Positions 7,239 to 54,808 of a stretch of DNA of 64,000 nucleotides are shown one piece after another. The stretch is from positions 6,308 through 70,307 of the IMG/VR virus record IMGVR_UViG_3300027763_000047. One strand, 5' to 3'. A program made the position numbers and the translations under genes. Within the stretch, counting starts at the first letter, position 1; every line of letters starts with the position of its first letter. Below the pieces are notes generated by a model that worked only from the letters and a program-made list of their open reading frames with translations, was not told the origin of the DNA and did no database searches. The stretch comes from a virus (lineage: Duplodnaviria > Heunggongvirae > Uroviricota > Caudoviricetes).

Positions 7239-7267
7239 TTGACAGTTATATGGGTATCGGCTATAAT
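7239..7267 (+). promoter_or_regulatory. consensus sigma70-type promoter (TTGACA-17-TATAAT)
   Basis: ttgacagttatatgggtatcggctataat. Confidence 0.7.
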
Positions 7268-7298
7268 AGTTATACATTAACAACACGGAGTTTACAAC

Positions 7299-7466
7299 AT
7301 GAAAACATTTAACGTATTTTACACAGCGTACGAGGAAGGCAGTTCAAGCATTATCAGTGAAGGTGTTATGCCCGTCAGCACTGACTCCAGCTACCAAGCT
7401 GAAGCAGCAGTACAAGCTATGTTCCGCGGTTGCGAAGTTATTATTCGTTACACCAACGAGGCGTAA
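7299..7466 (+). CDS. small hypothetical protein (55 aa), not in ORF track
   Basis: ATG 24 nt after -10 with GGAG RBS; MKTFNVFYTAYEEG... Confidence 0.5.
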   Translation: MKTFNVFYTAYEEGSSSIISEGVMPVSTDSSYQAEAAVQAMFRGCEVIIRYTNEA

Positions 7467-7468
7467 TA

Positions 7469-7666
7469 ATGAAAAGCCGAACCCTTGCAAAGAAGTATCA
7501 TTTTTGGTTTATCCAAGTAAATGATGTCCGCACACGATTTAATCAATACCAGGATGCAAAAGCAGCCTGGGATACTACAACAAAAGGTGTGCTGTGCAGG
7601 GGTGACGGTGCAGTATACGATTGGAAACCTTTTTGTCCTGCGTTGTATGCAGGTGTTGACAATTAA
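7469..7666 (+). CDS. small hypothetical protein
   Basis: MKSRTLAKKYHFWFIQ...; the track extension from 7430 overlaps the upstream gene. Confidence 0.5.
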   Translation: MKSRTLAKKYHFWFIQVNDVRTRFNQYQDAKAAWDTTTKGVLCRGDGAVYDWKPFCPALYAGVDN

Positions 7667-7684
7667 TTAGCTGGACCTTATAAT
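7656..7684 (+). promoter_or_regulatory. consensus sigma70-type promoter of the TTGACAATTAA family
   Basis: ttgacaattaattagctggaccttataat overlapping the 3' end of the upstream ORF. Confidence 0.7.
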
Positions 7685-7713
7685 AGTATTTTACAATTAA
7701 ATAGGAGCGAAGC

Positions 7714-8715
7714 ATGTCAAATGTGCTGATTAAGAACGGTGTTTATCGCAATACCCCGGTAGTTAACGTTTCTTTCACGCTTGTAAAAGATTTGCAAACA
7801 GGTGCCAACGGCAATTATGTGACTGTAAAGTCCAATGGTTACTTTGGCCCCGACCACGACACAGTTCGTATTCGAGTAAACGGCATGGAGGATATTGAGT
7901 TTGAAGGTAACCCAGATCCTGTTGTACCAGCTGTTGCCGAAACGGACGAAGAAGTCATGGAGCGTATTGCTGAACGTTTCGAAATCCTACATCAAATGAC
8001 TCGTGCTACCATTGCTGGTGATGTACGTGCCATGATTGTTGTTGGCCCTCCTGGTGTGGGTAAGAGCTATGGTGTTGAGTATGAGCTGGAGAAATCTGGT
8101 TTGTTTGACAAGATCAGCAGCCGCAAGATCAAGTATGAAATTATCAAGGGTGCTATCAGCCCTATTGGTCTGTACTGCACATTATACAAACACTCAGATG
8201 CTAACAACGTTCTGGTGTTTGATGACTGTGACTCTGTATTCCAAGATGAGCTGGCGCTAAACATTCTTAAGGCGGCCCTGGATTCAGGCAAGAAGCGCAG
8301 GATCCACTGGAACTCGGACTCAAGTATGTTACGTCGTGAAGGTGTGCCAGACTGTTTTGATTTTAAGGGTGGTGCTATTTTTATCACTAACCTTAAGTTT
8401 GACAACTTAAAGTCCAAGCGTATGCAGGATCACCTGGAAGCATTGCAATCACGCTGTCACTTCCTGGACTTAACTCTGGATACAATGCGTGATAAGTTTT
8501 TGCGTATCAAACAGATTTTCCGTCAGGGTCAGCTGTTTAATGACTATGATCTTAGCCCCGAAGTTGGGGAAGAGATTTTAGCATTTATGGATGCTAACAA
8601 GAATCGCCTGCGGGAAATGAGCCTGCGTATGGCGTTGAAGTTAGCTGATCTTACCAAGGTAAGTGAGACTAATTGGAAGGCGTTAGCAGTATCGACTTGT
8701 ATGAAGGGTGCCTAA
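7714..8715 (+). CDS. AAA-type P-loop ATPase
   Basis: Walker A VVGPPGVGKSYG, Walker B VLVFDDCD, sensor FITN. Confidence 0.65.
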   Translation: MSNVLIKNGVYRNTPVVNVSFTLVKDLQTGANGNYVTVKSNGYFGPDHDTVRIRVNGMEDIEFEGNPDPVVPAVAETDEEVMERIAERFEILHQMTRATIAGDVRAMIVVGPPGVGKSYGVEYELEKSGLFDKISSRKIKYEIIKGAISPIGLYCTLYKHSDANNVLVFDDCDSVFQDELALNILKAALDSGKKRRIHWNSDSSMLRREGVPDCFDFKGGAIFITNLKFDNLKSKRMQDHLEALQSRCHFLDLTLDTMRDKFLRIKQIFRQGQLFNDYDLSPEVGEEILAFMDANKNRLREMSLRMALKLADLTKVSETNWKALAVSTCMKGA

Positions 8716-8856
8716 CGTGCCCTGGTTTGTGGTAATGCTGCTGGTGTTGATGAGCTATCCACACGCAGCAGTTTGGTTAGCGTTTATTATAGTATTGATG
8801 GACGTTATGAAAATTTAACTGTACGCTAATTAGCGTATAAGTAAAAGGTAGCTCCT

Positions 8857-8917
8857 GTATCGTTTTAACAGCGATACATTTTATCAGGTGTCCCTAAAAA
8901 GACACCTGCTTTTTTTT
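8857..8917. terminator. tandem hairpins plus T-run (likely bidirectional terminator between convergent operons)
   Basis: gtatcg...cgatac and caggtgtc-cctaaaaa-gacacctg followed by ctttttttttgg. Confidence 0.6.
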
Positions 8918-9348: not shown

Positions 9349-9357
9349 AATAATTCC

Positions 9358-10462: not shown

Positions 10463-13400
10463 TTAATAAAGTTTTGTATAACCATAATTAACTACCACAG
10501 AGTTGCCGCTGGTGTTGTTAATGCTAAAGTCAAATCTATTAGTAGTACTACTTGGAGCAACATTGCTTCTAACTATGGCGTTGGCTGTGCCTATAAATTG
10601 ATTGGGTATGCTGACAAAATCCAACGGTGTACCGCCACCGTTGTAAACCCAAGCATATTGTGTACCCACCACTGGAACATTGGTATTAGTAATGGTAGCT
10701 AGGGCATTCCACGCAATGATGCCGTTGGGTATATTGCCAGTGACCCACATATTATATGTGCCGCTACTTACAGTAAAGCTGTAAGTGTTGGTGCCAGCGG
10801 TTACTGACCAAGAGCCGGTTGTTTGTTGGGCCACATTGGTCAAGCCTGATCCATTACCAACAAAGGTATTAGCAGTAACATTGCCGGCAGCACTGATATT
10901 TGCACCAGAGATGTTGCCAGAAGAGGGTTCAACGGTAGCATAGTTATTATACTTTATATTACCATCATAGAGCATTATACTCATATAACCATTGGAGGTA
11001 ATATCTTGTGTGACTGCTGGAGCTGGTAAACTAGTTAATTGACTACCATTACCTAAAATATAATTGCCAGTAATATTACCGTAGGCACTTAGTGATCCGC
11101 CTGACATACTTGATGGTATCGTAATATCGCCACCACTTACTGTTAATCCTTGTACTCCGGTAATGTTGGCACTGACAACTGTTAGTTCTGACCCAGATGT
11201 TATGTTGCCCGAAACGCTAATATTGCCTTGTTGTATATTAAGATTACTTAGTACATTGCCACTTAAACTTAAATTACCACCATTGATATTTTGTCCATTT
11301 ACATTGGCACCTATTATATTGCCTTCCGCGCTAATGCTACCACCCATGCCGGTATTGGAAGACATTGTAAGATTTCCACCTTCCATTGTAAGGCCATTAA
11401 CACTATAAATGTTAGCGCCATATGCAAAGATGTTGCCACTCAAACTAATATTGCCTGCGGATATATTAGCAGCATTTACATTGCCGCTTATGTTGGCATT
11501 ACTAATAATATTACCTGATAAACTTAGGTTAGCGGCATTAATATCGCCTGAGAAGTTAGCACCAAAAGCATTAAGATATCCGCCGAGGCCAGTAATTTGA
11601 TTAATATTAATATTACCAGCATTGGAAGTAATGCCTGTTACTGTGTCAATTAATAATCCAGAGGCTGTAATGTTACCTGAAGTTGATATTACGTTACTAC
11701 CAAAGTCGCCTAAGAAGTTAGCCACGTTAGCGTTGCCATAATCGCTACCACCAATTGATACCGGGGTACCATTAGCGTAGTTAACTGCAAAAGTATTAGC
11801 TGGTAGAGTCAAGTTGCCTGTGTTACCAAATAACCATTGGTTAATGTTTGGGCCAGCGTTAGTAAAAATACCAACAGAGAAGTCGCTAGTAATACCAAAG
11901 ACGCCTTCGCCTCCGCTTATTGAAGAGTTGTCAGGAAACCTTAAACCACCATTTACACCAAATGTCCATTGTGCTGAGTTACCTACATTGTCATTAGTAT
12001 TAATAACAACGTTACCTGTGTTGGCTAGCTTGACGTACAAGTCATCACTGCCGAAGAACAATTCTGTAGAGTAAAGATTACCCGAAGTCAAGTGCAGATG
12101 ATTGGCATCATTAGTGGTTGGATAAATTAATAACTGTTGATCAGCATTTGTTCCACCTGTTGGCTTTAAAGCAATGGCACTGCCGCTAAGTCCGCCGTCC
12201 GGAATGTTGGTTTCATAGACAACACTATTCAATGGCAAGGTCAAGTTACCAGTAGTGTCAAAGTTCCAAGTCTTTGTGCCACTGACATTACCAGCCTGTA
12301 TGGCCACATTGCCATCCTGTAAAACAGCAACATTGGCTTGTTCATCTGTGCCCAAAATCACATTACCAACGCCACCACCAGCTGCTACATGTATATCCGC
12401 GTTCCCAGTCAAGTAAATATTTAAATACTCATTGCTGGCACCGTTTGGTTGTAGGTTTAAGTTTCCTGTGCCAATGATGTTGACATCATCAAATGTAACA
12501 TTACCTGTATTACCACCTCCGCCACTGAATGTAACAGGATCACCATTGGCATAGTTTACAGCGAATGTATTGGCTGGTAATGTTAAGTTACCAAGGCTAT
12601 CAAATATCCAAGTATTACCAGTTGAAGTGTACCCGTTCCAAGACTGTATGGAAACATTGCCGATTGGAGAAACTCCAACCATCACATTGGCACCAGCATC
12701 TTCACCTAATATAAGACTTCCATCATTGTTGGTAACATGAAGGTCTGGTCCAGAGGTTAGGAAGATGTCCAAATATGAAGCAGCATTGGTAGGATCTGGT
12801 TGTAAGTGTAAGTTACCTGTACCAATGACATTAATATCATTGAATGTTACATTGCCTGTGTTACCACCGCCACCGCCGTATGGACTACCGTTAGCATAGT
12901 TAATACTTGAGTAATTATTTGGTAATGTTATGTTACCGTCAACGCCGAATGTCCAATCAGTCGGAGCAGTATTATTATTACCGGCATTGGCAGCAGTATT
13001 ATATTTGGTTATTACAAATGTTGCCCCACCATTACCAGCAGTCATAGTCAATACATCACCTTCGGAATAACCTGTGCCCGGATCAGTTACACCAACGTTA
13101 ACAACCTGACCACTTAAACCATAACCGTAACCTACTATCATACCTGTACCTGTGCCTCCGGAAATAGCAGAAGAACTTCCGCCACCACCGTAACCACTGC
13201 CACCAGTTAGTAATGTACAGATATTATATTGACCTGTTACTCGTAGTGTCAAGTCGTTTACATTCGGTGCAATGATAGTAGCACTGTTGGGTAGTGTTAA
13301 GTTACCATTTACACCAAAGGCCCATGTATTGGCATTGGCTGTGATATTAACGCTAGTATTACTAGTTTCACTTATTTGGCTACCTTGAGGCAATGTCAAT

Positions 13401-16400
13401 GCACCACTAGCATTAAAATCCCATAGATTAGGACCAGGGCTACCATTTTGTCCTACTGCTATTCTAACAATACCTGATCCTGGAGTAGGGTTAGCATATA
13501 CTGCCGCTATGTTGCTGATGCCAACGTTCGCATAATCTTCTATCCATATGGATACTGCCGCACCATTGGCTCCAGTTGACAATATGGACAGTGGATGATC
13601 CGTAGATGCAATAGAAGCAATATTACCAGCAGGGTCATCAGGTGTGATAACTAAATTACCTGTTGGGAATGTTAAGTTACCAGTAGTGTCAAAGTTCCAC
13701 TGTGCTGAGTTTCCGGTGGCATCATCACTGCCGATCACAACATTGCCGGCGGCTTCTAATTTTACATACTTGATATCGGAGCCAAAGTATTGATCAAAAT
13801 AAGCATTGTTGCCTGTGTCAAGGTGTATGTGTGTGGCAACATCGCCACCACGCACTCGAATATATTGTAAATTGCCCACGCTTTCGGTGCCTGGAGCCAG
13901 GTACAGGCCACTGCTGCCAACTTGATCTCCAGTGCCCACAACAGCTTGATCGTCGAATGTAACGTTGCCTGTGTTGCCGCCGCCACCAGCCGTGTCATAT
14001 GTGATCTCACCAGTAGATGCATCATAATACATGGCATTTGCTGTGTTGGCTTGTCGCACTGGTTTCACTGTGAATGTGTTGACAGTGGTTTGCTCCAGGA
14101 CTGATCCTGTGGCGTTCAATATGATTGAGTTGTTGGCTTGATTGGAGTTGCCGGCTCCGTAGCCAATGGCCACTGCGTATTGGCCCTGTGTGTCTCGCCC
14201 GGCTCCATCACCAACGGCCACGGCCGAGATGCCTTGTGTGTTGTAACCAGCATTTTCGCCAATGGCCACTGCTGAGTTGCCTTGTGTGGTTTGACCAGCT
14301 TCAAAACCAATAGCCACGCCATAGATGCCTTGTGTGGTTTGACCAGCAAGTCTTCCAAATGCTATTGCCGAGGTTCCTTGTGTGGTTGCGCCAGCCCCAA
14401 AACCAATTGCTATTGCCGAGCCACCTTGTGTGGTTTGTCCAGCTCCTTGGCCCACAGCCACCGACGATTCACCTTGTGTGGTTTTACCAGCACTATCACC
14501 GATTGCTACTGATTGGTCACCTTGACTGGTATTACCAGCTTGATAACCAATGGCCACTGATATATTACCTTGATTGACATTACCAGCCGAGTTGCCAATG
14601 GCTACTGCAACCAGGCCTTGATTGGTTAGTCCAGCACCCGAACCAAATGCCACTGCGTCACCCACAGTGTCTTGAATTGTTGCACCGTTTGTGAGTGTGA
14701 TCACGCCTGTGCTGATATTGCCTGCTGTGATATTGCCCGTGGTGCTGATTGGGTTTGATCCTAATGCAGCCAAGTTAGCAACAACATTGGCGTTGCCATA
14801 ACTTGCGGAAATACCAGTCAGTTGACTACCGTTGCCCAGAATATAACTACCAGTGATGTTGCCAACAGCACTGATGTTGCCAGGCACAGTCAAGTTACCA
14901 TCTGTGCCAAAGGTCCATGCATTACCGGCAGTTCTATCCGTGATACTATAATTGTTGCTACCATTGCCAAGAATACCAAAGTCCCATTGCTGAGTTGCGG
15001 TGGCCTGATCCTGCACTGACATATAAGCACTACGCGGAGTATTGTAGTTGTCATCGTAGCCAACCACAGTAATGCCAGGGCCAGCCACAATGCCAAAGTC
15101 TGTGCTTTCTACTCTTGGAGTATTGACCGTTATGTATGGAGTATAATCAACTCGGGGCTGGTAAGCCGTGTTACCGTTAATATCCAATAGACCATCGCCA
15201 TCGAACTGCATGGTGGTGTAGGTATCACCAGGCGTACCGCCTTGATTGGAAAAATCTCCCAACCAATTTATCTGCACCGCTCCAGAGTTGCCGCTAGGAT
15301 AACCACCGTAAGGATCGCCATTGGCATAGTTGATTGATATTTCGCTGTTACCTGGCAGTGTTAAGTTACCATCAGTGTCAAAAGCCCAGTTATAGGTGTT
15401 TGTTCCAATTGATATGTTACCACCGGATTCTAACTTGACATATTTGCTATCATCACCAAAGTATTGATCAAAATAACCATTATCGCCAGTGTCAAGATGT
15501 ATGTGTGTGGCAACATCACCACCACGCACTCTCAAGTATTGTAAATTGCCCGAGCTGTTAGCGCCAGGAGCCAAATACAAGCCACTGCCGCCGATTTCAT
15601 CGCCTGTGCCTACTACAATGTTATTATCAAATGTAACATTACCCGTATTACCGCTACCAGATGGCAGACCAGTTAATTGACTTCCATTGCCTAGGATGTA
15701 ACTTCCGGTAATATTACCAGTTGTTGAAATTACTACGTTACTGTTTGCCAAATATGTAGAAACATCAGCATTTGAGTAACTGGCTGGAAGATTAGTTAAT
15801 TGACTTCCATTACCAACGAAATAATTAGCAGTAATATTGCCGGTAGCAGATACCGTACCTACTGTAAGAACTTCTGTTCCGGAATTATACTTGAATAAAT
15901 TAGAAGTAGTAATATAACCGGTAGAATTAGCAAACGCTACAGCATTAGCATAATAATTAGGAGAGTACAGATTATTTAAAGTAACATCGCCGGCGTTGAT
16001 TGATCCTGTCGTACTAATTGTGTTGGAACCAAAGTTTGCTAAGAAACCAGCAGTATTTGCATTTCCATAATTAGAAGCAATACCAGTTAGCTGACTGCCA
16101 TTGCCAAAGAAATAACTAGCGGTGATATTGCCAGTAGTTGATATATTTGATGTTAATGCTTGTAAGTAAGATGAAACATTGCCATTAGCATATACTTGGC
16201 CTTGTAATGTAGTTATATTACTTGAATTGTTTGAAACATTAGATTGAATACTAATTATAGTATTGTCAGTTGGCAAGTATACGGCTACATTACTGTTACC
16301 ATAACTAGTAGTAACTACAATATTTGATATCAGACCGCCATCACCAATAAAATAGCCACTTGTTGTAATATTACCTACAATAGATAAATTGGCGGTTGAT

Positions 16401-17437
16401 GCTAATTGATATGCCATTCCGGCTACAACAGCTGAGTTGGCATTGTCCGCTTGAACAGCATAAGTTGCTGCGTTAGCTGTTTGTGCTATAGTGGCTGTGT
16501 TAGCAAATGATGCTAAGTTGGCATTGATTGCGAATAAAGCAGTATCAGCATTGATCGCCTGAGTAGCCAATGCTGCTAGATTAGCTACATATGCTGTGTT
16601 AGCAACAAGAGCAAACGGCACATTACCTACAATAGCATTGGCTGTAATGTTAGTGATATTGCTGCCATTGCCATACAGATAATTAGCAGTAACTCTATTA
16701 CCAACAATAGCATTGGCATATACATTCCCGGTTGTTGATACATTACCAGTGATAGATAAGGCAGATATTTGTCCAAAACTAGTTAAGTTTGAATAATTTA
16801 TGCTATTGCTGAATGTATTTCCAAGTAAAGCATTGGCCTGTACATTGGCAATAACATTGGTTAAATTGGCACCATCACCGATGAAAGTAGGTGCTGTAAT
16901 AGCAATTGTGCTATTCCAGCTGTTAGCTGAGTAATTATATGTAAAGTTAGCTCCTGCTATAGGAATTAACAGTCCGCCGCCATTAGCCTGTGCTGCATTG
17001 GCAGCACCGGTTGCTAGTGTAACATTTGAATTAGCAACAGATAAATTAGAATAGTTAACAGTAATAACATTGCCTGTTACCTGCAGGTTACCAGCTACAT
17101 AGACATTACCGGAGAACGTACCGGTGGCAGCGTTTATATATTGAGCGTAAACTGTACTGAAACGATTGGTACCCAACCCAATTGACCGGACATTGGGCAC
17201 ATCTGGTACAAAGTTGGCTGCTGGCACAACAACACCAATGCCATTTGTGGCTAATTGTAAATTGCCATTGTTATTGGTAACCTGTATGGTATTGTTGGCA
17301 ATTGTGATATTGCTGCCCACCGGGCCCGCTGCAAAAAGCTGTGTAAAATTGTAATTGGTGTCGGTAAAAGCTGTACGAAGTGGCGCACCTGTGCCATCGT
17401 TAGCGATATTGCCGGTATTGATAATTATTTGTCCCAT
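10463..17437 (-). CDS. giant tail fiber protein (2324 aa)
   Basis: N-term MGQIIINTGNIANDGTGAPLRTAFTDTNYNFTQLF fiber motif; about 13 S-A-V-A-I-G-x-x-A-G-x-T-T-Q-G repeats; multiple W-x-F-x-x-x-G-N-L-T-L-P and GNGSQLTG modules. Confidence 0.85.
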   Translation of the reverse strand: MGQIIINTGNIANDGTGAPLRTAFTDTNYNFTQLFAAGPVGSNITIANNTIQVTNNNGNLQLATNGIGVVVPAANFVPDVPNVRSIGLGTNRFSTVYAQYINAATGTFSGNVYVAGNLQVTGNVITVNYSNLSVANSNVTLATGAANAAQANGGGLLIPIAGANFTYNYSANSWNSTIAITAPTFIGDGANLTNVIANVQANALLGNTFSNSINYSNLTSFGQISALSITGNVSTTGNVYANAIVGNRVTANYLYGNGSNITNITANAIVGNVPFALVANTAYVANLAALATQAINADTALFAINANLASFANTATIAQTANAATYAVQADNANSAVVAGMAYQLASTANLSIVGNITTSGYFIGDGGLISNIVVTTSYGNSNVAVYLPTDNTIISIQSNVSNNSSNITTLQGQVYANGNVSSYLQALTSNISTTGNITASYFFGNGSQLTGIASNYGNANTAGFLANFGSNTISTTGSINAGDVTLNNLYSPNYYANAVAFANSTGYITTSNLFKYNSGTEVLTVGTVSATGNITANYFVGNGSQLTNLPASYSNADVSTYLANSNVVISTTGNITGSYILGNGSQLTGLPSGSGNTGNVTFDNNIVVGTGDEIGGSGLYLAPGANSSGNLQYLRVRGGDVATHIHLDTGDNGYFDQYFGDDSKYVKLESGGNISIGTNTYNWAFDTDGNLTLPGNSEISINYANGDPYGGYPSGNSGAVQINWLGDFSNQGGTPGDTYTTMQFDGDGLLDINGNTAYQPRVDYTPYITVNTPRVESTDFGIVAGPGITVVGYDDNYNTPRSAYMSVQDQATATQQWDFGILGNGSNNYSITDRTAGNAWTFGTDGNLTVPGNISAVGNITGSYILGNGSQLTGISASYGNANVVANLAALGSNPISTTGNITAGNISTGVITLTNGATIQDTVGDAVAFGSGAGLTNQGLVAVAIGNSAGNVNQGNISVAIGYQAGNTSQGDQSVAIGDSAGKTTQGESSVAVGQGAGQTTQGGSAIAIGFGAGATTQGTSAIAFGRLAGQTTQGIYGVAIGFEAGQTTQGNSAVAIGENAGYNTQGISAVAVGDGAGRDTQGQYAVAIGYGAGNSNQANNSIILNATGSVLEQTTVNTFTVKPVRQANTANAMYYDASTGEITYDTAGGGGNTGNVTFDDQAVVGTGDQVGSSGLYLAPGTESVGNLQYIRVRGGDVATHIHLDTGNNAYFDQYFGSDIKYVKLEAAGNVVIGSDDATGNSAQWNFDTTGNLTFPTGNLVITPDDPAGNIASIASTDHPLSILSTGANGAAVSIWIEDYANVGISNIAAVYANPTPGSGIVRIAVGQNGSPGPNLWDFNASGALTLPQGSQISETSNTSVNITANANTWAFGVNGNLTLPNSATIIAPNVNDLTLRVTGQYNICTLLTGGSGYGGGGSSSAISGGTGTGMIVGYGYGLSGQVVNVGVTDPGTGYSEGDVLTMTAGNGGATFVITKYNTAANAGNNNTAPTDWTFGVDGNITLPNNYSSINYANGSPYGGGGGNTGNVTFNDINVIGTGNLHLQPDPTNAASYLDIFLTSGPDLHVTNNDGSLILGEDAGANVMVGVSPIGNVSIQSWNGYTSTGNTWIFDSLGNLTLPANTFAVNYANGDPVTFSGGGGNTGNVTFDDVNIIGTGNLNLQPNGASNEYLNIYLTGNADIHVAAGGGVGNVILGTDEQANVAVLQDGNVAIQAGNVSGTKTWNFDTTGNLTLPLNSVVYETNIPDGGLSGSAIALKPTGGTNADQQLLIYPTTNDANHLHLTSGNLYSTELFFGSDDLYVKLANTGNVVINTNDNVGNSAQWTFGVNGGLRFPDNSSISGGEGVFGITSDFSVGIFTNAGPNINQWLFGNTGNLTLPANTFAVNYANGTPVSIGGSDYGNANVANFLGDFGSNVISTSGNITASGLLIDTVTGITSNAGNININQITGLGGYLNAFGANFSGDINAANLSLSGNIISNANISGNVNAANISAGNISLSGNIFAYGANIYSVNGLTMEGGNLTMSSNTGMGGSISAEGNIIGANVNGQNINGGNLSLSGNVLSNLNIQQGNISVSGNITSGSELTVVSANITGVQGLTVSGGDITIPSSMSGGSLSAYGNITGNYILGNGSQLTSLPAPAVTQDITSNGYMSIMLYDGNIKYNNYATVEPSSGNISGANISAAGNVTANTFVGNGSGLTNVAQQTTGSWSVTAGTNTYSFTVSSGTYNMWVTGNIPNGIIAWNALATITNTNVPVVGTQYAWVYNGGGTPLDFVSIPNQFIGTANAIVRSNVAPSSTTNRFDFSINNTSGNSVVVNYGYTKLY

Positions 17438-17584: not shown

Positions 17585-17854
17585 ATGATTAAGAAATTAA
17601 ACAAAGGTACCAAGTCGCACCAGTTGTTCAAGCACCTACAGACCGGCGCTCAGATTACTGCCGCAGAAGCAGCTCGTATGTTCGGTATCAAGAATATTCG
17701 TGCTGAGGTTTCACGTGTACGTCACGCAGGTTTCGCAGTATACAGTAAGTCATATACTGCTGGTAACCATGTTAAAGTTACATACTACGTTATGGGAACC
17801 CCAAGTCAAGAGATCGTAGCTGCTGGCTATCGTGCGCTCGCATTAGGTCTGTAA
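17585..17854 (+). CDS. small hypothetical protein, possible HTH DNA-binding
   Basis: 89 aa; ITAAEAARMFGIKNIRAEVSRVR helix-turn-helix-like segment. Confidence 0.45.
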   Translation: MIKKLNKGTKSHQLFKHLQTGAQITAAEAARMFGIKNIRAEVSRVRHAGFAVYSKSYTAGNHVKVTYYVMGTPSQEIVAAGYRALALGL

Positions 17855-17881
17855 TACTCCGTTCGGTGTGTTATAAGTAAA

Positions 17882-17906
17882 AGCCCCAGCAATTGGGGCT
17901 TTTTTG
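17882..17906. terminator. bidirectional rho-independent terminator
   Basis: agcccca-gcaat-tggggct followed by tttttg; lies between convergent genes. Confidence 0.7.
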
Positions 17907-17912: not shown

Positions 17913-18425
17913 TTACAGGAAGAACTTTTCATTCTCATAGAATATTCTACCGGAGATACTGAATCTTATCTTCCCAGGTTCAATACCACGTACTGCGTGA
18001 GGCTCGCTAACCTGTAGTATATGCCATCTATGTGGCTCGATATTCATTGATTGAACTTTTTCATGCGTCTTACCATCGTAAAATTCCGTAAGAACATTGT
18101 CGCCGCCTGTTTCAAAAATATAAGATATTTTTACAAGGGTAAGGTCTGTATGTGGAGCTAGGTCTCCATCTATAAATTGAAATCCCCAGGTTGTATCTGG
18201 TATTACGTTTTCATCACACCATTTGGCTATGGGACTTCCCATAATATTGGTACGTTTATAATTATCCCATTGATATAGATCTTCACCATGATATGTAGTA
18301 TAATCTCGACTGAGATTTGCTATTAGTTCTTCTGGAATTTTTGGGAGATTTATATATCTAATTGGTGAATTTTTCATGGTGCGCCTACTGTTTGAATATT
18401 TACTATAATTATTCACACTTGACAA
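17913..18425 (-). CDS. 2OG-Fe(II) oxygenase/cupin-like protein
   Basis: APHTDL (HxD) and distal EPHAV histidine. Confidence 0.45.
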   Translation of the reverse strand: MSSVNNYSKYSNSRRTMKNSPIRYINLPKIPEELIANLSRDYTTYHGEDLYQWDNYKRTNIMGSPIAKWCDENVIPDTTWGFQFIDGDLAPHTDLTLVKISYIFETGGDNVLTEFYDGKTHEKVQSMNIEPHRWHILQVSEPHAVRGIEPGKIRFSISGRIFYENEKFFL

Positions 18426-18447
18426 TTAAATAGACCCAGCATACAAT
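18419..18447 (+). promoter_or_regulatory. sigma70-type promoter of the TTGACAATTAA family
   Basis: ttgacaattaaatagacccagcatacaat. Confidence 0.6.
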
Positions 18448-18475
18448 AACTATAATTAAACAACGAGGAATTAGC

Positions 18476-18796
18476 ATGACAGATTTTTGGTTGGGATTGG
18501 TAATTGGGTTTGTGGTCGCACTGGTGCTGGCTTACCTGATAACGGATTATTTAGGCACACGACTGTTACGTAGACTGCAACAGGAGATGGCGGCAGAAGA
18601 TTCTGTACAAGAAGAAGTTGTTGTCAGAGTCGAACGTGTGGGTGATGTCATCTATTGTTACGATGAGGCCAACCAGTTTGTTTGTCAGGGTAGAGATGTA
18701 AAAGAAATCGAACAGGCATTTAGAGACCGTTATCCCAATAGATACTGCGTACTGATACTACGTGGTGAGCAAGACGTATTGGGGGAAATGAAATAA
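18476..18796 (+). CDS. small membrane protein
   Basis: N-terminal TM FWLGLVIGFVVALVLAYLI. Confidence 0.55.
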   Translation: MTDFWLGLVIGFVVALVLAYLITDYLGTRLLRRLQQEMAAEDSVQEEVVVRVERVGDVIYCYDEANQFVCQGRDVKEIEQAFRDRYPNRYCVLILRGEQDVLGEMK

Positions 18797-18815: not shown

Positions 18816-18844
18816 GTTGACAATTAATTCAGTTAATTGTAAAC
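18816..18844 (+). promoter_or_regulatory. sigma70-type promoter of the TTGACAATTAA family
   Basis: ttgacaattaattcagttaattgtaaact. Confidence 0.6.
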
Positions 18845-18862
18845 TAGTGGTATTATAAATTA

Positions 18863-19999
18863 ATGGAGAATGTAGTGGACGAGCTTAAAATACGTGAGGA
18901 CGAGGGCAAGCATTATGTGTACTTTAACGGACCTTTTGGATCATGTGCCTACCAGTCAGATGCATTTGATACCTTAGCCGAAGCAGAGGCCTTTCGTCAA
19001 GAGCAACTGGATTCAGCAGATTACTCCGAAAATAATACGGAAAAGATGTATTGCTATTTGTGGCACGAAAAGACCGACATTGACGAATGTAAGTTTGGTG
19101 AACGTTGGGTCAAAGAAGGCCAAGATCCTAAGAAAGAAGTACTCAAGCGTATTAAAGACTCTGTTGGTGTTCGCAAGGACAAGATCAACGACGGCACCAT
19201 TGAACTGGTAGCTATCTGGGACGTTACCGAATTAGCAAAAGAGGTTGGTCGTTTCAAGATACACGGCCGGGTTGACGACTATATCCGTGAACACGTAGGG
19301 TTTCGTAAAGGTACAACAGGCGAAGTTCACACCCTGTCAGCAGTAGATATGGCTTTTAAAGTCAACGAGTTCCTTAAGAAACAGAATCAGCCGTTGATTG
19401 AAGCAGGATTGAGCCAGAATCAGTATAGTGCCGCAGAGAATGTTCTTGCTGCTATTGCAGACGGCAAACGTACTATTGTTGCTGAATTGTGCGCTCGCTT
19501 TGGTAAGACTATTTGGTCAGGTGTGTTGGCAAAAGAAACTAATCGTCCGTTGACTATTGTTGCGTCCTATGTGCTGACAAGTTTTGCATCTTTTAAGAAA
19601 GACCTGAGCGCCTTTGAACAGTTCCGTGACTTTGAATTAATCGATGCCGGTGAAAACGAATGGGAACTTAAGATTGAACAGGCCATTGGCGAAGGTAAAC
19701 AGGCTGTGGTGTTCTTGTCAATGTGTGCTGGTGGCCGCCGACAAGATAAGATCGATTTTCTATTTGGGCAACCTGTGAACAAGTTAGTGATCATTGACGA
19801 AGCTGACTTTGGTGTTCACCAAATTAAACAGAGCACACCACTGATTGAAGCACGTGGTGACGATGACATTGTGGTGCTTATGACTGGTACAAACGGTGAC
19901 AAAGCCGCAAGCATTTGGCCTGTAGATCACTACCTCAGCGTAACCTACCCAGAATTGCTTATGGAGAAACACGCAGATCGCCTGGTTGACACAGTGTGA
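18863..19999 (+). CDS. SF2 helicase N-terminal (ATP-binding) core with a unique N-terminal domain
   Basis: motif I ELCARFGKT, Ia PLTIVAS, II IIDEADF. Confidence 0.65.
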   Translation: MENVVDELKIREDEGKHYVYFNGPFGSCAYQSDAFDTLAEAEAFRQEQLDSADYSENNTEKMYCYLWHEKTDIDECKFGERWVKEGQDPKKEVLKRIKDSVGVRKDKINDGTIELVAIWDVTELAKEVGRFKIHGRVDDYIREHVGFRKGTTGEVHTLSAVDMAFKVNEFLKKQNQPLIEAGLSQNQYSAAENVLAAIADGKRTIVAELCARFGKTIWSGVLAKETNRPLTIVASYVLTSFASFKKDLSAFEQFRDFELIDAGENEWELKIEQAIGEGKQAVVFLSMCAGGRRQDKIDFLFGQPVNKLVIIDEADFGVHQIKQSTPLIEARGDDDIVVLMTGTNGDKAASIWPVDHYLSVTYPELLMEKHADRLVDTV

Positions 20000-20014
20000 T
20001 TTTGGTGCTATAAT
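19986..20014 (+). promoter_or_regulatory. perfect consensus sigma70 promoter
   Basis: ttgacacagtgtgattttggtgctataat. Confidence 0.7.
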
Positions 20015-20045
20015 ATACACATACACTAAGCAAATAGGAACAATT

Positions 20046-21331: not shown

Positions 21332-21360
21332 TTGACATGGTACCATTTTGGCAGTATAAT
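21332..21360 (+). promoter_or_regulatory. perfect consensus sigma70 promoter
   Basis: ttgacatggtaccattttggcagtataat; leader nearly identical to the 19986 cassette. Confidence 0.7.
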
Positions 21361-21391
21361 TAACACATACACACAAACAGTTGGAACGATT

Positions 21392-22442: not shown

Positions 22443-22471
22443 TTGACAATTAAATCACGATAGTCTATAAT
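22443..22471 (+). promoter_or_regulatory. perfect consensus sigma70 promoter
   Basis: ttgacaattaaatcacgatagtctataat. Confidence 0.7.
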
Positions 22472-22555
22472 AGCTGTAACAATTGGAGCAAATATGTACA
22501 TGGACAGACAAAGAATTGTTTGATCACTTTGGTTTAACAGAAGAGGAGGTAAACC

Positions 22556-23065: not shown

Positions 23066-23094
23066 TTGACATTCAATTGTTGGTTAGTTAAAAT
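23066..23094 (+). promoter_or_regulatory. sigma70-type promoter
   Basis: ttgacattcaattgttggttagttaaaat. Confidence 0.65.
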
Positions 23095-23119
23095 ATAAGA
23101 ATAACCTAACGGAAATAAA

Positions 23120-23896
23120 ATGAGAGTAAACGTAATTTCGGATTTGCATTTAGAGTTCAGTACGGACTTCACACTACCCGGCGGTGAGGTCTTGATCTTG
23201 GCTGGTGATTTATGCGAGGCCAAGAACTTAAAACATGCCAATTATCAAGATTGGATTTTTGAGAACCTTACCAAGTATCGTGATGTGTTGTATGTCTTGG
23301 GTAACCATGAAAGTTATGGTATGCGGATCGATAGAACAAAGGAACTGGTTGAAGAATACATGCCGGACAATGTTCGCGTGATGGAAAACCAAACACACAT
23401 CATTGATGATGTTGTGTTTGTGGGTGGGACACTCTGGACAGATATGAATAAAGGTGACCCCATGACTTCCCTACGTTGCCGTGAAGGTATGTCGGACTAT
23501 AAACATATCACCATGCACAACCGAGCAAAGGATGTGTATCATAAGCTCACGCCCGAGCATACCACTGTGCTGCATCGTGCCACAAGGGATCACATCATTG
23601 AGACCGCGCAGGCTAATAAGGACCGAAAGGTGGTAATGATCACGCATATGCTACCCAGTATGGCAGCTATCTCGGAACAATATCGAGAAGACTACCATTT
23701 GAATGGTGCATTTGCATCGGACCTGGATTACATCTTTATGGAGAATCCCAACATCAAGGTGGCCGTATTCGGGCATACACATGACTTTAAAGACTTTGTA
23801 GTGGGCGAAACTCGCTTGTTGTGTAATCCGCGTGGGTACGCTGGTTATGAACAACGAGTACAGGAGTTTGATCCAGCCTTTGGATTTGACATTTAA
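23120..23896 (+). CDS. calcineurin-like metallophosphoesterase
   Basis: ISDLHLE, LAGDL, VLGNHE motifs. Confidence 0.75.
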   Translation: MRVNVISDLHLEFSTDFTLPGGEVLILAGDLCEAKNLKHANYQDWIFENLTKYRDVLYVLGNHESYGMRIDRTKELVEEYMPDNVRVMENQTHIIDDVVFVGGTLWTDMNKGDPMTSLRCREGMSDYKHITMHNRAKDVYHKLTPEHTTVLHRATRDHIIETAQANKDRKVVMITHMLPSMAAISEQYREDYHLNGAFASDLDYIFMENPNIKVAVFGHTHDFKDFVVGETRLLCNPRGYAGYEQRVQEFDPAFGFDI

Positions 23897-23943
23897 ATCA
23901 TCTTCGCTTACAATAGTTATAACTTAACAAAACGGATTAAAAA

Positions 23944-27147: not shown

Positions 27148-27353
27148 TCATTGACTCAGGCTTCCAGTACGTCAAAACGATTCACAAACCCAAGGGGAGT
27201 CTGGATCGAATAATCGATTGGTGCAAACAGGAGACCCAGGGCGAGTGGCGATGGCAGTTAATTGCTGTTAGCAGCGAACATACCCCGGGCGAGTACATCT
27301 TTTATTTCGATTCCGAACGCGATTACCTTTCATTCCTAATGAAATGGTCTTGA
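27138..27353 (+). CDS. dispersed member of the LRWS paralog family
   Basis: I-D-W-C-K-Q-E core; C-term ERDYLSFLMKWS. Confidence 0.55.
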   Translation: MCLIIDSGFQYVKTIHKPKGSLDRIIDWCKQETQGEWRWQLIAVSSEHTPGEYIFYFDSERDYLSFLMKWS

Positions 27354-27378
27354 CAATTAATTCACCATAAACTATAAT
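27350..27378 (+). promoter_or_regulatory. perfect consensus sigma70 promoter
   Basis: ttgacaattaattcaccataaactataat. Confidence 0.7.
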
Positions 27379-27406
27379 AGTTGTACATTAACAAATGGAG
27401 TGCAGC

Positions 27407-29371: not shown

Positions 29372-29503
29372 GTACCGCTATAACTACCATTATATGCGTA
29401 GTTATAGCAGTTAAGTACAAGGTTATTCAAAAGATTTGTTAGTTAAATAATCTTGCTATATAATATGTTACTCAATGTAGTTCAATTTAAAAAAGGAAAA
29501 GTA

Positions 29504-30673: not shown

Positions 30674-30688
30674 AAGTAAAAGGATAAC

Positions 30689-31362: not shown

Positions 31363-31391
31363 TTGACATTTAATTCATCAACAACTATACT
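31363..31391 (+). promoter_or_regulatory. sigma70-type promoter
   Basis: ttgacatttaattcatcaacaactatact. Confidence 0.6.
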
Positions 31392-31451
31392 GTTATTATA
31401 GCAGTAAGAAGAATTTTATGCAGGTAACTCTCAAGATTAGGAACTATTATA

Positions 31452-31628
31452 ATGATTAGACTTTGGTTAATATTTGTTGTACTTTCAATATTAATTCATT
31501 TGGGTATCTCCACCTGGAGAAATATGAAAGGTAAGGATCGATGGGCATTGACTAAGTCCATTGGTTATAGTATAATTGTTGCATTACTAGTTGTTCTATT
31601 CTTAACTTCAATCGTTATTTTATTCTAA
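31452..31628 (+). CDS. small two-TM membrane protein (58 aa), not in track
   Basis: MIRLWLIFVVLSILIHLG... Confidence 0.4.
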   Translation: MIRLWLIFVVLSILIHLGISTWRNMKGKDRWALTKSIGYSIIVALLVVLFLTSIVILF

Positions 31629-31636
31629 GGAATTAT

Positions 31637-36441: not shown

Positions 36442-36470
36442 TTGACATTTAATCAAAGGTCAGCTATAAT
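36442..36470 (+). promoter_or_regulatory. perfect consensus sigma70 promoter
   Basis: ttgacatttaatcaaaggtcagctataat. Confidence 0.7.
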
Positions 36471-36542
36471 GTAGTTGTAGTATGTAGTTAAGTTTAACTT
36501 TTATTTTAATCAACTTTGAAAGGCATCTTAGAAAGGCATCTT

Positions 36543-38831: not shown

Positions 38832-38860
38832 TTGACAATTAAATCCGCTGTTACTATAAT
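38832..38860 (+). promoter_or_regulatory. perfect consensus sigma70 promoter
   Basis: ttgacaattaaatccgctgttactataat; ATG 38867 only about 6 nt after the -10. Confidence 0.65.
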
Positions 38861-38866
38861 AGCTTT

Positions 38867-39259
38867 ATGACAATGCATCTACTCCCCCCGCTGTATTCGA
38901 CCACAGGCAAAAAGAAAGGTCGCTATAAATTCGCATCTGCTGAGCAAAAACAGCAAGCTGAAGCTAATAAGGAAGAGTGGCAGCGTAAACTAAATGAATT
39001 TAATCGACTATCACCCTCTGTAAGGACGTCAAAGAGCCCTATGCCCACACTAAGCAAATCGCTACCCCGTATTCCCACCAGCCGTCAAACAGCTCACATT
39101 GAGTCCCTAGTAACCACCTGGGGTCCTTGCCTTAAGGTAGAAGATATGCAGTACACTGGCAACAAAATTAAGGGCATTGGCACAATGCATAAATCAAATG
39201 CGGTGCCGGTATTCAGTGACGAAGAAGCTGTTGAAATTTCACAAATGCGGAGAGGCTAA
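38867..39259 (+). CDS. hypothetical basic protein
   Basis: 130 aa. Confidence 0.45.
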   Translation: MTMHLLPPLYSTTGKKKGRYKFASAEQKQQAEANKEEWQRKLNEFNRLSPSVRTSKSPMPTLSKSLPRIPTSRQTAHIESLVTTWGPCLKVEDMQYTGNKIKGIGTMHKSNAVPVFSDEEAVEISQMRRG

Positions 39260-47431: not shown

Positions 47432-47899
47432 ATGACAACAAAAGTCTATAAAACCGCAAAAGGTAAACCAGTAGACCTTGGAGCATTACGTTTACAAAAC
47501 GAAAATGTTCGAGCAGTTGGTAATATGAATGTAAATGCCCGTGGGGATAGGATCGACGCTGATGGCAACGTAATTGACCCTCGTAATCAACAGATTCAAC
47601 GACGAATACAACGACAAACTAATGTGGCCAGCGGACCGGTACACTCAAGCTCACGTGCTCAACAAGCGGAACAGGTAGCAGCAGAAAATCCAGTGATGCC
47701 CACACGACCAGTAGCACCGGCTGCGGATCCACTCCCTATTCCAGCGGCTCCTCCGGTTGCAACTAGGGAAACAATCGTTACCCAAGATAATGCATTTGCC
47801 GCGGCAATGGGACGTACCAAGACAGTTACACAGACGTTAGAATTAACCGAACGTCAGAAATTAGAAAATCAAATAGCGCAAGCAAAAAAGGGAAAATGA
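47432..47899 (+). CDS. hypothetical protein
   Basis: 155 aa; Pro/Ala-rich middle. Confidence 0.5.
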   Translation: MTTKVYKTAKGKPVDLGALRLQNENVRAVGNMNVNARGDRIDADGNVIDPRNQQIQRRIQRQTNVASGPVHSSSRAQQAEQVAAENPVMPTRPVAPAADPLPIPAAPPVATRETIVTQDNAFAAAMGRTKTVTQTLELTERQKLENQIAQAKKGK

Positions 47900-48291
47900 A
47901 AGCACAGTACGCACCACATAAAGTAGAAAAGCAGAAACTTAAAGTATTACAAAACAATGTTCTGGTATCGGATATGGTGTTTGATGAACGTATCAGTACA
48001 GGCGGTATCTTACTGTTAAATGACAATGGCAAAGGCAATGGTATTCGCCCACGCTGGGGTCGTGTATACGCAGTAGGTCCAGAACAAAAAGATGTTAACG
48101 TAGGTGATTGGGTATTGGTAGCACATGGTCGTTGGACTAGGGGTTTAGATCTCGAAGACGAAAATGGCAAATTAACCGTTCGTAAGATTGATCCTAAAGA
48201 TATCCTACTAGTATCAGATGACGAAGAGTGCCCCACAGTCGAAGGCATTAGTTCTGCCGTGCATGTAGATCGTAAGGAAATGCCTAATTAA
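47896..48291 (+). CDS. co-chaperonin GroES-like (Cpn10)
   Basis: TGGILL, RVYAVGPE...VNVGDWVLV, KDILLV match GroES core. Confidence 0.6.
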   Translation: MKAQYAPHKVEKQKLKVLQNNVLVSDMVFDERISTGGILLLNDNGKGNGIRPRWGRVYAVGPEQKDVNVGDWVLVAHGRWTRGLDLEDENGKLTVRKIDPKDILLVSDDEECPTVEGISSAVHVDRKEMPN

Positions 48292-52753: not shown

Positions 52754-53196
52754 TTCTTAACTCCTACTAATGCTGATTGATTTAGTATGTCAATAGCCAA
52801 TGGATCAACTTTACAAGTTAAGTCAAGTTTAGCAGCATTTTTGGCAATGCGATTTTTAACTACATACTGAACTTCTTTCACAATTTTAACACGATCAACA
52901 TACACCGTTTCAATTTTGCCATTAGCTTCAGCGGCCTCCTTCTCTGCCTTAGCAACCTTTATTTCAAGTTCGGCAACTCTTGCTGCCCATTTGGCTTCAT
53001 TTGCAATTCCGCCTTCTATCCACACACAAAATACAATAAGCACGGCACTAGCAATACGAATTACAAATGCATTGGTTGTGATAAAAGGAATCATTTTAAG
53101 AATGTAGCTGGCCCCAAATGCTAGTATAGCAAATATTAACAATAGATGATATACAAAATCAGGTAATAAAGATAACAGCCACATTATTTGCCACAT
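52750..53196 (-). CDS. i-spanin-like membrane protein with coiled coil
   Basis: N-terminal TM(s) then AARVAELEIKVAKAEKEAAEANGKIE coiled coil; directly downstream of endolysin. Confidence 0.45.
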   Translation of the reverse strand: MWQIMWLLSLLPDFVYHLLLIFAILAFGASYILKMIPFITTNAFVIRIASAVLIVFCVWIEGGIANEAKWAARVAELEIKVAKAEKEAAEANGKIETVYVDRVKIVKEVQYVVKNRIAKNAAKLDLTCKVDPLAIDILNQSALVGVKK

Positions 53197-53197
53197 A

Positions 53198-53827
53198 TCA
53201 TGCCCCTAGTACGTGACAAGCATGTTGATAGTGTTTTTCTCTGTCAGCAAGGCCAATGGTGCCACCATTGATTCGTTTAGTTAATGTTAAAATATCACCT
53301 GCGTCAGCAAATTGATTTAGTCCATTAGTTTCCCAGAACCAACATGCGCTCTGAACAGCGCCTTCAAATGTACCTAGGTACTCTGGCAATTGTTCAACAG
53401 GAGTTTCTATACTTTCCGCAAAGCGTGTATAATTATCTTTGCCTGTTAACTGGATAAGACCCTTGCCTGCGTAACGCCATCCATCACCACTTTCTTCTGG
53501 ACCATTGCCCATGCGGTCACAATAAGCACGATTGGCTATCATTTCTTGATTGTGTGCGTATTGCTCTGCAATAGCAGGCGGAAAACGACTAGGCCAGACA
53601 CGGCTTAATGATGCTGCTGTGTAGTTTAAGTTTTCTTTTAATGCTGTAAAATTAGCACTCTCGTGGGCACATTGAGCTAAAAAAGCAGCTACCCTAGGTA
53701 CTGTGTTAATTTCGTAATCAGGTAATATACGTGATATAGCATCATACCACTCTGCCACATACGGATTGTTAGGTATAATTTGTGCCAGTTGTTCTGGTGT
53801 AAAGTTGAATGCGAATCCTTGACTCAT
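53198..53827 (-). CDS. GH19 (chitinase-like) endolysin
   Basis: AAFLAQCAHESANF and YAGKGLIQLTGKDNY signatures. Confidence 0.8.
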   Translation of the reverse strand: MSQGFAFNFTPEQLAQIIPNNPYVAEWYDAISRILPDYEINTVPRVAAFLAQCAHESANFTALKENLNYTAASLSRVWPSRFPPAIAEQYAHNQEMIANRAYCDRMGNGPEESGDGWRYAGKGLIQLTGKDNYTRFAESIETPVEQLPEYLGTFEGAVQSACWFWETNGLNQFADAGDILTLTKRINGGTIGLADREKHYQHACHVLGA

Positions 53828-53838
53828 TTAATTTTCCT

Positions 53839-54195
53839 TTATTTTTTAGGTACTAGGTGACCAAACTGAGCTTCAGCACGGCGTGTGCCTGGACCAGTAA
53901 TTCCATCTGCTGTGATCTTAGCTCCGGCAGCAATTAGTTCTTTTTGACGTTTCTGAACAGCAGCATCAAAACCAGGTGGTTTAGCAGCTGGCTTGGCAGG
54001 TGCCTTAGCTGGTACTGCTGTGCCTTCGTATTTCTTGTGTACCTTAATAGTACGGCAAGTTTGCTTAGTTGTCCCATCTTTATTTAATACAACATGACCA
54101 GCTTTGTCTTTAACTGGATTACATACTTGTTTAGTTTCGGCGGCATTAGCAGAAGATGCTATGCCTAATATGATTATTGCAAATAGAGTTTTCAT
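53839..54195 (-). CDS. secreted protein with PG_binding_1-like domain
   Basis: signal peptide; DGITGPGTRRAEAQFG. Confidence 0.5.
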   Translation of the reverse strand: MKTLFAIIILGIASSANAAETKQVCNPVKDKAGHVVLNKDGTTKQTCRTIKVHKKYEGTAVPAKAPAKPAAKPPGFDAAVQKRQKELIAAGAKITADGITGPGTRRAEAQFGHLVPKK

Positions 54196-54204
54196 TATTA
54201 TTCC

Positions 54205-54729
54205 TTATAAGGGTTGATCTACTTGTGCTGCTGGACCTGGTTTGCCAGCATACATAGTTTTTGTTGGTGCGCTGTTAAACCCGGGAGATGGACTGTTAAA
54301 TCCATTTGAGGGACTATTGAATCCAGGTGATGGGCTACCAAATCCAGATGATGGACTGTTAAGCCCGGTTGACGGACTGTTAAATCCTGACGATGGGCTA
54401 CCATATCCATTTGATGGATTATTACCATACCCTGTATTCATGCCATTGTTGACCCCGGCTAATTTTTCTTGGGTACGCCCAAATGCCGCTACTCCTATTA
54501 TGGCACCCATTGCCATATGAAATAGTCCTGCTCCTTGAAGAGTGATTGGTTGCCATTGTGTTTCAACACGGCCACCATGTGCTGCTTGTATTAAACTCCA
54601 TAGTATAGGAAATACCACAAAATCACACATACAGACAAACATATACATCCACCCCATCATAGGGCGCCATTTGCTGTTCATCCAATCTTCTTTTTTCTTT
54701 TCGCTTTCAGATTGTACTGTTTCTGACAT
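54205..54729 (-). CDS. holin-like membrane protein with C-terminal SPSxGFN heptad repeats
   Basis: two TM segments; 7 tandem S-P-S-x-G-F-N repeats; first gene of lysis cluster. Confidence 0.4.
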   Translation of the reverse strand: MSETVQSESEKKKEDWMNSKWRPMMGWMYMFVCMCDFVVFPILWSLIQAAHGGRVETQWQPITLQGAGLFHMAMGAIIGVAAFGRTQEKLAGVNNGMNTGYGNNPSNGYGSPSSGFNSPSTGLNSPSSGFGSPSPGFNSPSNGFNSPSPGFNSAPTKTMYAGKPGPAAQVDQPL

Positions 54730-54779
54730 ACTAAATCCTCGAATTGTACAGATATTTATCTAGATTCACCAAAGCTAGA

Positions 54780-54808
54780 TTGACATAAATATCGTTTTAC
54801 TATACAAT
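54780..54808 (+). promoter_or_regulatory. sigma70-type promoter
   Basis: ttgacataaatatcgttttactatacaat. Confidence 0.6.

Follow-up and report, generated by a model that had tools for sequence, protein, structure and literature searches.

The window analysed here is a stretch of 64,000 nucleotides (nt) from the virus record IMGVR_UViG_3300027763_000047 (Caudoviricetes; record positions 6,308-70,307; one strand, 5' to 3'), and it contains a family of near-consensus sigma70-type promoters, most of which carry an additional conserved block between positions -29 and -21. The promoter family is real, and it is of an ordinary kind for phages relying on the host RNA polymerase; the unexplained part is the -29 to -21 block. 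Taken together, the sites are probably best explained as early promoters of the host sigma70 type, in which the block constitutes a selected part of the core promoter.

Sites were defined by the hexamers only, as a TTGACA without mismatch followed, after a spacer of 17 nt, by a hexamer with four or more of six matches to TATAAT. Fourteen such sites occur on the + strand (Table 1). The -35 hexamer is 6/6 and the spacer exactly 17 bp in all of them, and the -10 hexamer is 6/6 in eight sites, 5/6 in five, and 4/6 in one, with A2 and T6 invariant. The original prediction had listed at least 13 consensus promoters of this type, a count that is confirmed here with one site to spare; its positions were correct except for 18816, which really starts at 18817, and the site at 23886 had been missed. 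The perfect arrangement TTGACA-N17-TATAAT (12/12) is found eight times in the window, compared with 0.04 expected from dinucleotide-preserving shuffles, and TTGACAWTTAA nine times, compared with 0.33 expected, in both cases exclusively on the + strand. Under the same hexamer criterion the - strand has five sites, each with merely 4/6 in the -10. The weight-matrix scan that had been proposed as a check was run on the window with a 49-column position weight matrix built from the 14 sites, and it returned no - strand site of at least 12 bits. A repeat search found the promoter family independently (D10 and D16). Weak matches (at least 9/12) are not enriched, with 74 found against 60 expected and 57 against 52 expected, so that enrichment is confined to the near-perfect class.

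The conserved unit, G-TTGACA-WTTAAWTCA-N8-TATAAT-AGT..TAT, is longer than first described. WTTAA is present in nine of the 14 sites, in agreement with the earlier statement that most sites share an extension, and this proportion is no selection artefact because the site set was defined by the hexamers alone. Among the nine WTTAA sites, mean pairwise identity is 1.0 in the -35 hexamer and 0.78 in the extension (-29 to -22), compared with 0.27 in the 3' half of the spacer, 0.28 in the 40-nt upstream flank, and 0.258 for random sequence; positions -20 to -13 are unconserved. The sites had been called near-identical, which was overstated, given that pairwise identity outside the conserved blocks is 0.26-0.29. 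The random-level identity of the upstream flank and of the 3' half-spacer indicates that the sites are not recent duplicates and that the conserved blocks are under selection. Motifs of the WTTAAWTCA type are not enriched away from TTGACA, nor are stand-alone, operator-like copies, and the block shows no dyad or direct-repeat symmetry other than the 6-bp ATTAAT. An A occurs 7 nt past the -10, at the predicted +1, in 12 of the 14 sites, usually followed by a short A-rich leader (often TTAACAA), a Shine-Dalgarno (SD) sequence, and an ATG.

Accessory elements are sparse in the family. The TGn extended -10 (TG at -15/-14) is present at one of the 14 sites, and A+T content in the UP-element region (-40 to -60) averages 0.68 against a background of 0.585, with clear A-tracts at few sites. 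Upstream hairpins are present only at 7656, 27350, 31363, and 54780; a general upstream stem-loop is absent, the folding energies of the 60 nt upstream of the sites being those of the background (Mann-Whitney p = 0.44).

All 14 sites lie directly upstream of co-oriented + strand open reading frames (ORFs), and at 7656, 19986, 23886, and 27350 the -35 element is located inside the last codons of the upstream gene, as had been observed for several sites. Predicted leaders measure 19-26 nt at ten sites and 54-78 nt at three. At 38832 the leader is of 0 nt, the predicted +1 being the A of the ATG, and the mRNA is thus predicted to be leaderless. The long-leader promoters at 36442 and 22443 are not tied to a known RNA, as neither tRNA genes nor Rfam matches were found in the window. 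Genes downstream of the family encode two DNA methyltransferase-like proteins, a metallophosphoesterase, a DnaJ-like protein followed by a ClpA/B-like ATPase, the phrog_1250 protein, and several ORFans. None of the 14 sites precedes a fibre-like, virion, endolysin, or holin-like gene; fibre-like, virion, and lysis genes often have the heptamer CTAAATA upstream instead.

CTAAATA is a candidate late promoter. It stands 16-26 nt upstream of the start codons of ORFs of structural type, namely the 2324-aa fibre-like, 473-aa, 300-aa, and 107-aa ORFs (aa, amino acids), and it is also found about 8 nt before a virion-protein gene. Of its ten occurrences, four lie 8-32 nt before a long ORF, compared with about 6% for permuted heptamers, and it is kept at two orthologous genes in a related locus (L134).

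Start sites and conservation in related phages

The window comes from an uncultured large phage of the jumbo type that resembles PA5oct, and PA5oct-like jumbo phages are its closest cultured relatives. Its phage genes include a T4-type clamp loader, a DNA polymerase fragment, PhoH, virion proteins, an endolysin, and a holin-like protein, and many auxiliary genes accompany them, encoding a porin, an OmpA-like protein, a lipoprotein, a superoxide dismutase, an IscA-like protein, a Cpn10-like protein, and a 2OG-oxygenase. Among cultured phages, the Pseudomonas jumbo phages of the PA5oct group give the clamp loader its best match, with 54% identity. A megablast search with 6 kb of the window gave no DNA-level match to cultured phages, and the 913-aa and 824-aa proteins of the window gave nothing beyond remote or partial matches.

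For comparison, 94 loci of viral contigs encoding proteins related to the phosphoesterase or to the 824-aa protein were examined as fragments (individual loci are cited by L numbers); an earlier set of related loci had been restricted to the late-looking right end of the window and contained few sites. With a perfect -35, a 17-nt spacer, and a -10 of at least 5/6 as criterion, 140 distinct hexamer-defined sites were found in the 94 loci, nearly all of them co-oriented with the gene used for fetching the locus. Promoters of the relatives are A-rich at -45 to -40. A preference for Y-A-T is centred exactly 7 nt past the -10 of the 140 sites. Measured from the -10, the first ATG of an ORF of 50 aa or more shows a bimodal spacing, with a sharp peak at 6-7 nt (20 sites) and a broad peak at 25-34 nt. 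In L045, a 90%-identical relative, an extended-type promoter lies between the tRNA-His and tRNA-Lys genes of a four-tRNA cluster (8301-8727), and its predicted +1 falls 2 nt before the tRNA-Lys gene. These three independent features agree on a start site at the position expected of a sigma70-type promoter. The leaderless arrangement, with an ATG at the predicted +1, recurs in the clade (L086 and L127; 20 of the 140 sites), and the L034 orthologue of the gene starting at 38867 has not kept it, showing a 27-nt leader.

Block-wise conservation is also seen between orthologous promoters. In L036, L077, and L092 the orthologue of the gene at 7714-8715 is preceded by TTGACA-ATTAAWTC...TATAAT-AGTAYTATTAACAA, and when the promoter at 7656 is compared with each of these three, mean identity is 0.79 in the extension, 0.41 in the 3' half-spacer, and 0.29 in the flank. 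In four contigs that have unrelated upstream flanks, the promoter is the precise point from which the promoter plus phrog_1250 unit becomes homologous. The same extended type also occurs in L083 (a 177-kb relative), L045, L100, L060, and L134. A scan of IMG/VR for the extended pattern identified at least 119 loci, and among the matches listed 25 share proteins with the window, though they cover only a few kb each.

Other lineages of the clade have extensions of their own, ATAAAT...TTTGGGTA in L205, L211, and L213 and ATTCA in L210. A second promoter subtype, represented in the window by the sites at 19986 and 21332, has the start region TATAAT-(A/T)(A/C)ACACAT and no spacer extension, and it recurs in L149, L185, L213, and other loci. 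Tandem gene duplication was rejected as the origin of the likeness between these two promoters, since the genes at 20046 and 21392 encode unrelated proteins. On the - strand of L060, two promoter-plus-leader copies (854 and 1444), 590 nt apart, are identical from the -35 to about +21 and precede different genes, which suggests that some relatives have homogenised or duplicated promoter cassettes locally; L205, L211, and L213 contain several homogenised promoters each.

Possible roles of the -29 to -21 block

Use of these promoters by the housekeeping holoenzyme of the host is very likely on the evidence of the sequence, and region 4 of sigma would then bind TTGACA and region 2 TATAAT across the optimal 17-bp spacer. 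Transcription would start at the conserved A located 7 nt past the -10 and would yield A-rich leaders of 19-26 nt with an SD sequence or, in some cases, leaderless mRNAs. The promoters are proposed to head short transcription units encoding DNA methyltransferases, the phosphoesterase, chaperones, small ORFans, and the products of membrane 'moron' genes. Because they need no phage factor, they should fire on entry of the DNA, and early timing is thus likely; we also infer that their affinity for the polymerase may be very high. Structural genes would depend on another signal, with CTAAATA as a candidate. All sequence-testable parts of the original reading as phage promoters of the host sigma70 type have held, including the phage origin of the DNA, the co-orientation of sites and genes, the +1 signals, the polymerase dependence of PA5oct, and the reality of the extension.

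The WTTAAWTCA sequence at -29 to -21 is envisaged as a selected, lineage-specific part of the core promoter, which would most likely act through the shape or flexibility of the upstream spacer to tune how the polymerase binds or isomerises, and would not be a separate operator. An intrinsic effect on DNA shape is favoured by the fixed register of the block with the -35, by the lack of operator-like symmetry, and by the fact that the same 12-mer works in the trp and tac promoters. Nevertheless, this particular role is put forward tentatively, with slightly more doubt than confidence.

Several observations weigh against the explanation as a whole. Five of the 14 sites have no extension yet look equally good, which indicates that the extension is not required for promoter identity. 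The differing extensions of sister lineages would also fit a phage factor that co-evolves with its sites. No known basal promoter element maps to -29 to -21, and the shape mechanism is thus a conjecture. The first 50 kb of PA5oct, the part of that genome that was scanned (the other 237 kb were left out), contain two perfect sites, neither of them with WTTAA. As for the host, the sole hint is a Burkholderiales-like porin, and its identity of about 31% is weak, too weak for a comparison with host promoters.

The block could alternatively be a discrete, previously undescribed recognition element, either a basal element read by the polymerase of a (probably betaproteobacterial) host or the target of a phage factor controlling the whole early regulon, but we consider this improbable. 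In its operator form, the proposal is that a phage DNA-binding protein, such as the small winged-helix protein encoded at 17585-17854 or a factor delivered with the virion, switches the early promoters off or boosts them as a set. Conservation of the block is independent of that of the hexamers, and its sequence changes from one sister lineage to another, as expected of a protein and site that co-evolve; lineage specificity fits an operator as well as it fits a DNA-shape effect. The block also matches no known contact of RNA polymerase (PMC3173786), the winged-helix gene (PF14090) adjoins the promoter cluster and has homologues in two loci found solely through the promoter pattern, and the five promoters lacking the block would allow for two regulatory classes. 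On the other side, symmetry past the 6-bp ATTAAT is missing, the motif is not enriched outside the TTGACA context, no regulator has been linked to the block, and the identical 12-mer is functional in the trp and tac promoters of E. coli with no such factor involved. An operator is an unlikely explanation, which we rate below selection on the core promoter itself.

Less likely still is a mobile promoter cassette that spread through recombination or gene conversion, the origin suggested for the early-promoter stem-loop elements (PeSLs) of T4-like phages; the promoters would work, and their extra conservation would be historical, with no cause in selection on polymerase contacts. RB49 and phi1 offer a precedent in PeSLs that contain near-perfect promoters (PMC4122927), and the phrog_1250 unit that begins exactly at its promoter, the identical copies of L060, and the homogenised promoters of L205, L211, and L213 are what such spread would leave behind. 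A general upstream stem-loop is nevertheless lacking, with hairpins at about four of the 14 sites, and the 3' half-spacer is at random-level identity while both neighbouring blocks are conserved, a pattern that points to position-specific selection and not to recent copying. Moreover, similar promoters stand before genes 20046 and 21392, which are not paralogous. A sigma70-family factor encoded by the phage, with an extended -35 specificity, is very improbable as the reader of the sites. Some large phages do encode sigma factors, an extended motif next to the -35 could reflect an altered region 4, and the visible part of the genome amounts to 64 kb. Against this, the two hexamers match the host consensus exactly and stand at the optimal spacing, a Pfam scan of 39 proteins found no sigma-like domain (most small ORFs lay outside the scan), PA5oct, a relative, is sensitive to rifampicin and has been described as a user of the host polymerase (PMC7318152), and a phage-encoded factor could not act immediately on entry. 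Chance or base composition in an A+T-rich genome could appeal to weak matches being no commoner than in shuffled sequence, but it is already refuted by the statistics of the perfect sites, by the placement of all 14 sites on one strand and before genes, and by their conservation in relatives.

Selection on the core promoter of a host-type early family is thus the explanation retained here. The family provides a ready transcription map for 64 kb of an uncultured phage of the jumbo type, with its probable early units, a predicted leaderless gene, and a candidate late signal. A broad clade of freshwater phages keeps a lineage-specific sequence at -29 to -21, where no polymerase contact has been described. 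Should the block affect activity, these promoters would constitute a cheap natural data set on how the spacer affects sigma70 promoters, and strong, compact promoters could be drawn from them; should it prove a discrete element, the extensions of the sister lineages would mark co-evolved specificities.

Features of the window

Two sites of 11/12 may be added to the 14 family members (Table 1), one of them probable, located before a lipoprotein gene, and the other possible, at 125, where it may head a tandem array of about 25 small paralogous ORFs (60-100 aa). Stop and start codons overlap within this array (...TTGAGGTGGTCATGA...), which corresponds to the repeats D2, D11, D13, and D20. The 2324-aa ORF is rich in repeats, many of them dispersed, and probably encodes a fibre or adhesin; the perfect TTGACA-N18-TATAAT inside it is most likely a chance match. 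The winged-helix gene has its own weak promoter, TTGTTT-N16-TATAAT, and homologues in L055 and L129, and it is followed by a strong hairpin-plus-T-run terminator between convergent genes.

Among the remaining genes, an envelope 'moron' cluster encodes a Porin_4-family porin, an OmpA-like protein, and a lipoprotein. An unusual auxiliary set comprises an Fe/Mn superoxide dismutase, an IscA-like Fe-S assembly protein, a Cpn10-like co-chaperonin, a DnaJ-like protein with a ClpA/B-like ATPase, and a 2OG-Fe(II) oxygenase. Internal repeats were also found in a 646-aa protein and in a holin-like protein.

Table 1. Promoters, given from the -35 to the predicted +1, and other features of the window.
Feature	Position	Strand	Hexamers	Extension or start region	Gene served and remarks
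Promoter	7239..7274	+	12/12	no WTTAA (GTTAT); start region AGTTATA	55-aa ORF 7299-7466
Promoter	7656..7691	+	12/12	ATTAATTA	phrog_1250 gene 7714-8715; -35 within upstream ORF end; hairpin directly upstream; orthologous promoter kept in L036, L077, L092
Promoter	18419..18454	+	TTGACA/TACAAT	ATTAAATA	106-aa ORF 18476-18796
Promoter	18817..18852	+	weak -10, TAAACT	ATTAATTC	ORF 18875-19999
Promoter	19986..20021	+	12/12	no extension; ACACATACAC start-region subtype	ORF 20046-21302; -35 within last codons of ORF ending 19999
Promoter	21332..21367	+	12/12	no extension; ACACATACAC subtype	DNA methyltransferase gene 21392-22429
Promoter	22443..22478	+	12/12	ATTAAATC	methyltransferase-like gene 22556-23020; 78-nt leader
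Promoter	23066..23101	+	TTGACA/TAAAAT	near-extension TTCAATTG	metallophosphoesterase gene 23120-23896
Promoter	23886..23921	+	TTGACA/TACAAT	TTTAAATC (TTGACATTTAA...TACAAT)	ORF 23944-24633; -35 within last codons of phosphoesterase gene
Promoter	27350..27385	+	12/12	ATTAATTC	55-aa ORF 27407-27574; best family-consensus match; -35 overlaps upstream ORF stop codon
Promoter	31363..31398	+	TTGACA/TATACT	TTTAATTC	ORF 31452-31628, then lipoprotein gene; terminator-like hairpin 31332-31351 upstream
Promoter	36442..36477	+	12/12	TTTAATCA	ORF 36543-36866; 66-nt leader
Promoter	38832..38867	+	12/12	ATTAAATC	predicted +1 at ATG 38867; phrog_27048 aligns from residue 1; -35 starts 2 nt past upstream stop
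Promoter	54780..54815	+	TTGACA/TACAAT	no WTTAA (TAAAT)	DnaJ-like gene 54841-55638, then ClpA/B-like gene 55702-57981; near-identical orthologous promoter in L001
Probable extra promoter	31548..31583	+	11/12	TTGACT-N17-TATAAT	lipoprotein gene 31637-32434
Possible extra promoter	125..160	+	11/12	TTGACG-N17-TATAAT	head of small paralogous ORF array
CTAAATA, candidate late signal	40873, 45089, 51056	+
CTAAATA, candidate late signal	17468, 10457	-
Small-ORF array	112-5650	+
2324-aa ORF	10463-17437	-			ten 48-nt tandem repeats (14163-14653)
Perfect hexamers at N18	13252	-			inside 2324-aa ORF
Winged-helix gene (PF14090)	17585-17854
Terminator	~17880-17906
Envelope 'moron' cluster	29453-32434	+
Auxiliary set	39958-40844, 47896-48291, 54841-57981, 33730-34302
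646-aa protein	34418-36358	+			about 11 repeats of 78 nt (DUF4116)
Holin-like 174-aa protein	54205-54729	-			21-nt (7-aa) tandem repeat

Comparison with known systems

PA5oct (Wroclawvirus, Arenbergviridae) was reported to be rifampicin-sensitive and to depend on the host RNA polymerase, and 32 putative promoters bearing TTGAC and TATAATA motifs were described around its transcription start sites (PMC7318152). Its genome shares the layout of the window, in which a long run of small genes on the + strand comes first and virion genes on the - strand follow, and an A directly after the -10 is common to both promoter families. Judged on the first 50 kb of PA5oct, the family of the window is denser, lies nearer to consensus, and carries the -29 to -21 block.

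The early promoters of T4 (Pe) are excellent sigma70 sequences located before prereplicative genes, and they show extra consensus beyond the canonical elements (PMC2988021). The same logic would apply to the window family, whose promoters would outcompete those of the host without a phage factor and also show extra consensus past the hexamers. Unlike Pe, which combine UP, -35, TGn, and -10 elements, the window promoters have TGn at a single site and a modest upstream A+T content; their -35 is the exact TTGACA, and their extra block lies in the upstream part of the spacer. The window has fewer copies of the T4 late motif TATAAATA than expected (two against seven), and the motif is not used.

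PeSLs of RB49 and phi1 contain near-perfect TTGACA-N17-TATAAT sequences repeated through ORFan-rich regions (PMC4122927). The window and its relatives share with them the near-perfect promoters and the occurrence of promoter-plus-gene units in differing contexts across genomes, but the upstream stem-loop that defines PeSLs is missing at most window sites. Many promoters of the window overlap the end of the upstream gene and thus leave no room for a terminator. The PeSL stem-loop was rejected as a general feature of the family because upstream folding equals the background.

Another spacer sequence, the Z-element (AACCT or AACAT at -22 to -18), is sensed by the beta' zipper and aids promoter use by the core enzyme (PMC3173786). 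The block of the window is also a spacer sequence but, as WTTAAWTCA at -29 to -21, it overlaps the Z-element by two positions and shares no sequence with it, and identity of the extension with the Z-element was rejected on position and sequence.

The closest resemblance in sequence is to the trp promoter of E. coli, where the 12 nt TTGACAATTAAT, comprising the -35 and the first six bases of the spacer, are identical. The -10 region and the operator differ, and the likeness is one of resemblance only, with no homology implied. To our knowledge, no function has been described for ATTAAT in trp. Of 5426 E. coli genomes, 5421 have TTGACAATTAAT ahead of trpL, and the string is common in papers using tac/trc constructs. 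Its presence in trp and tac/trc indicates that the sequence is compatible with strong, factor-independent sigma70 promoters.

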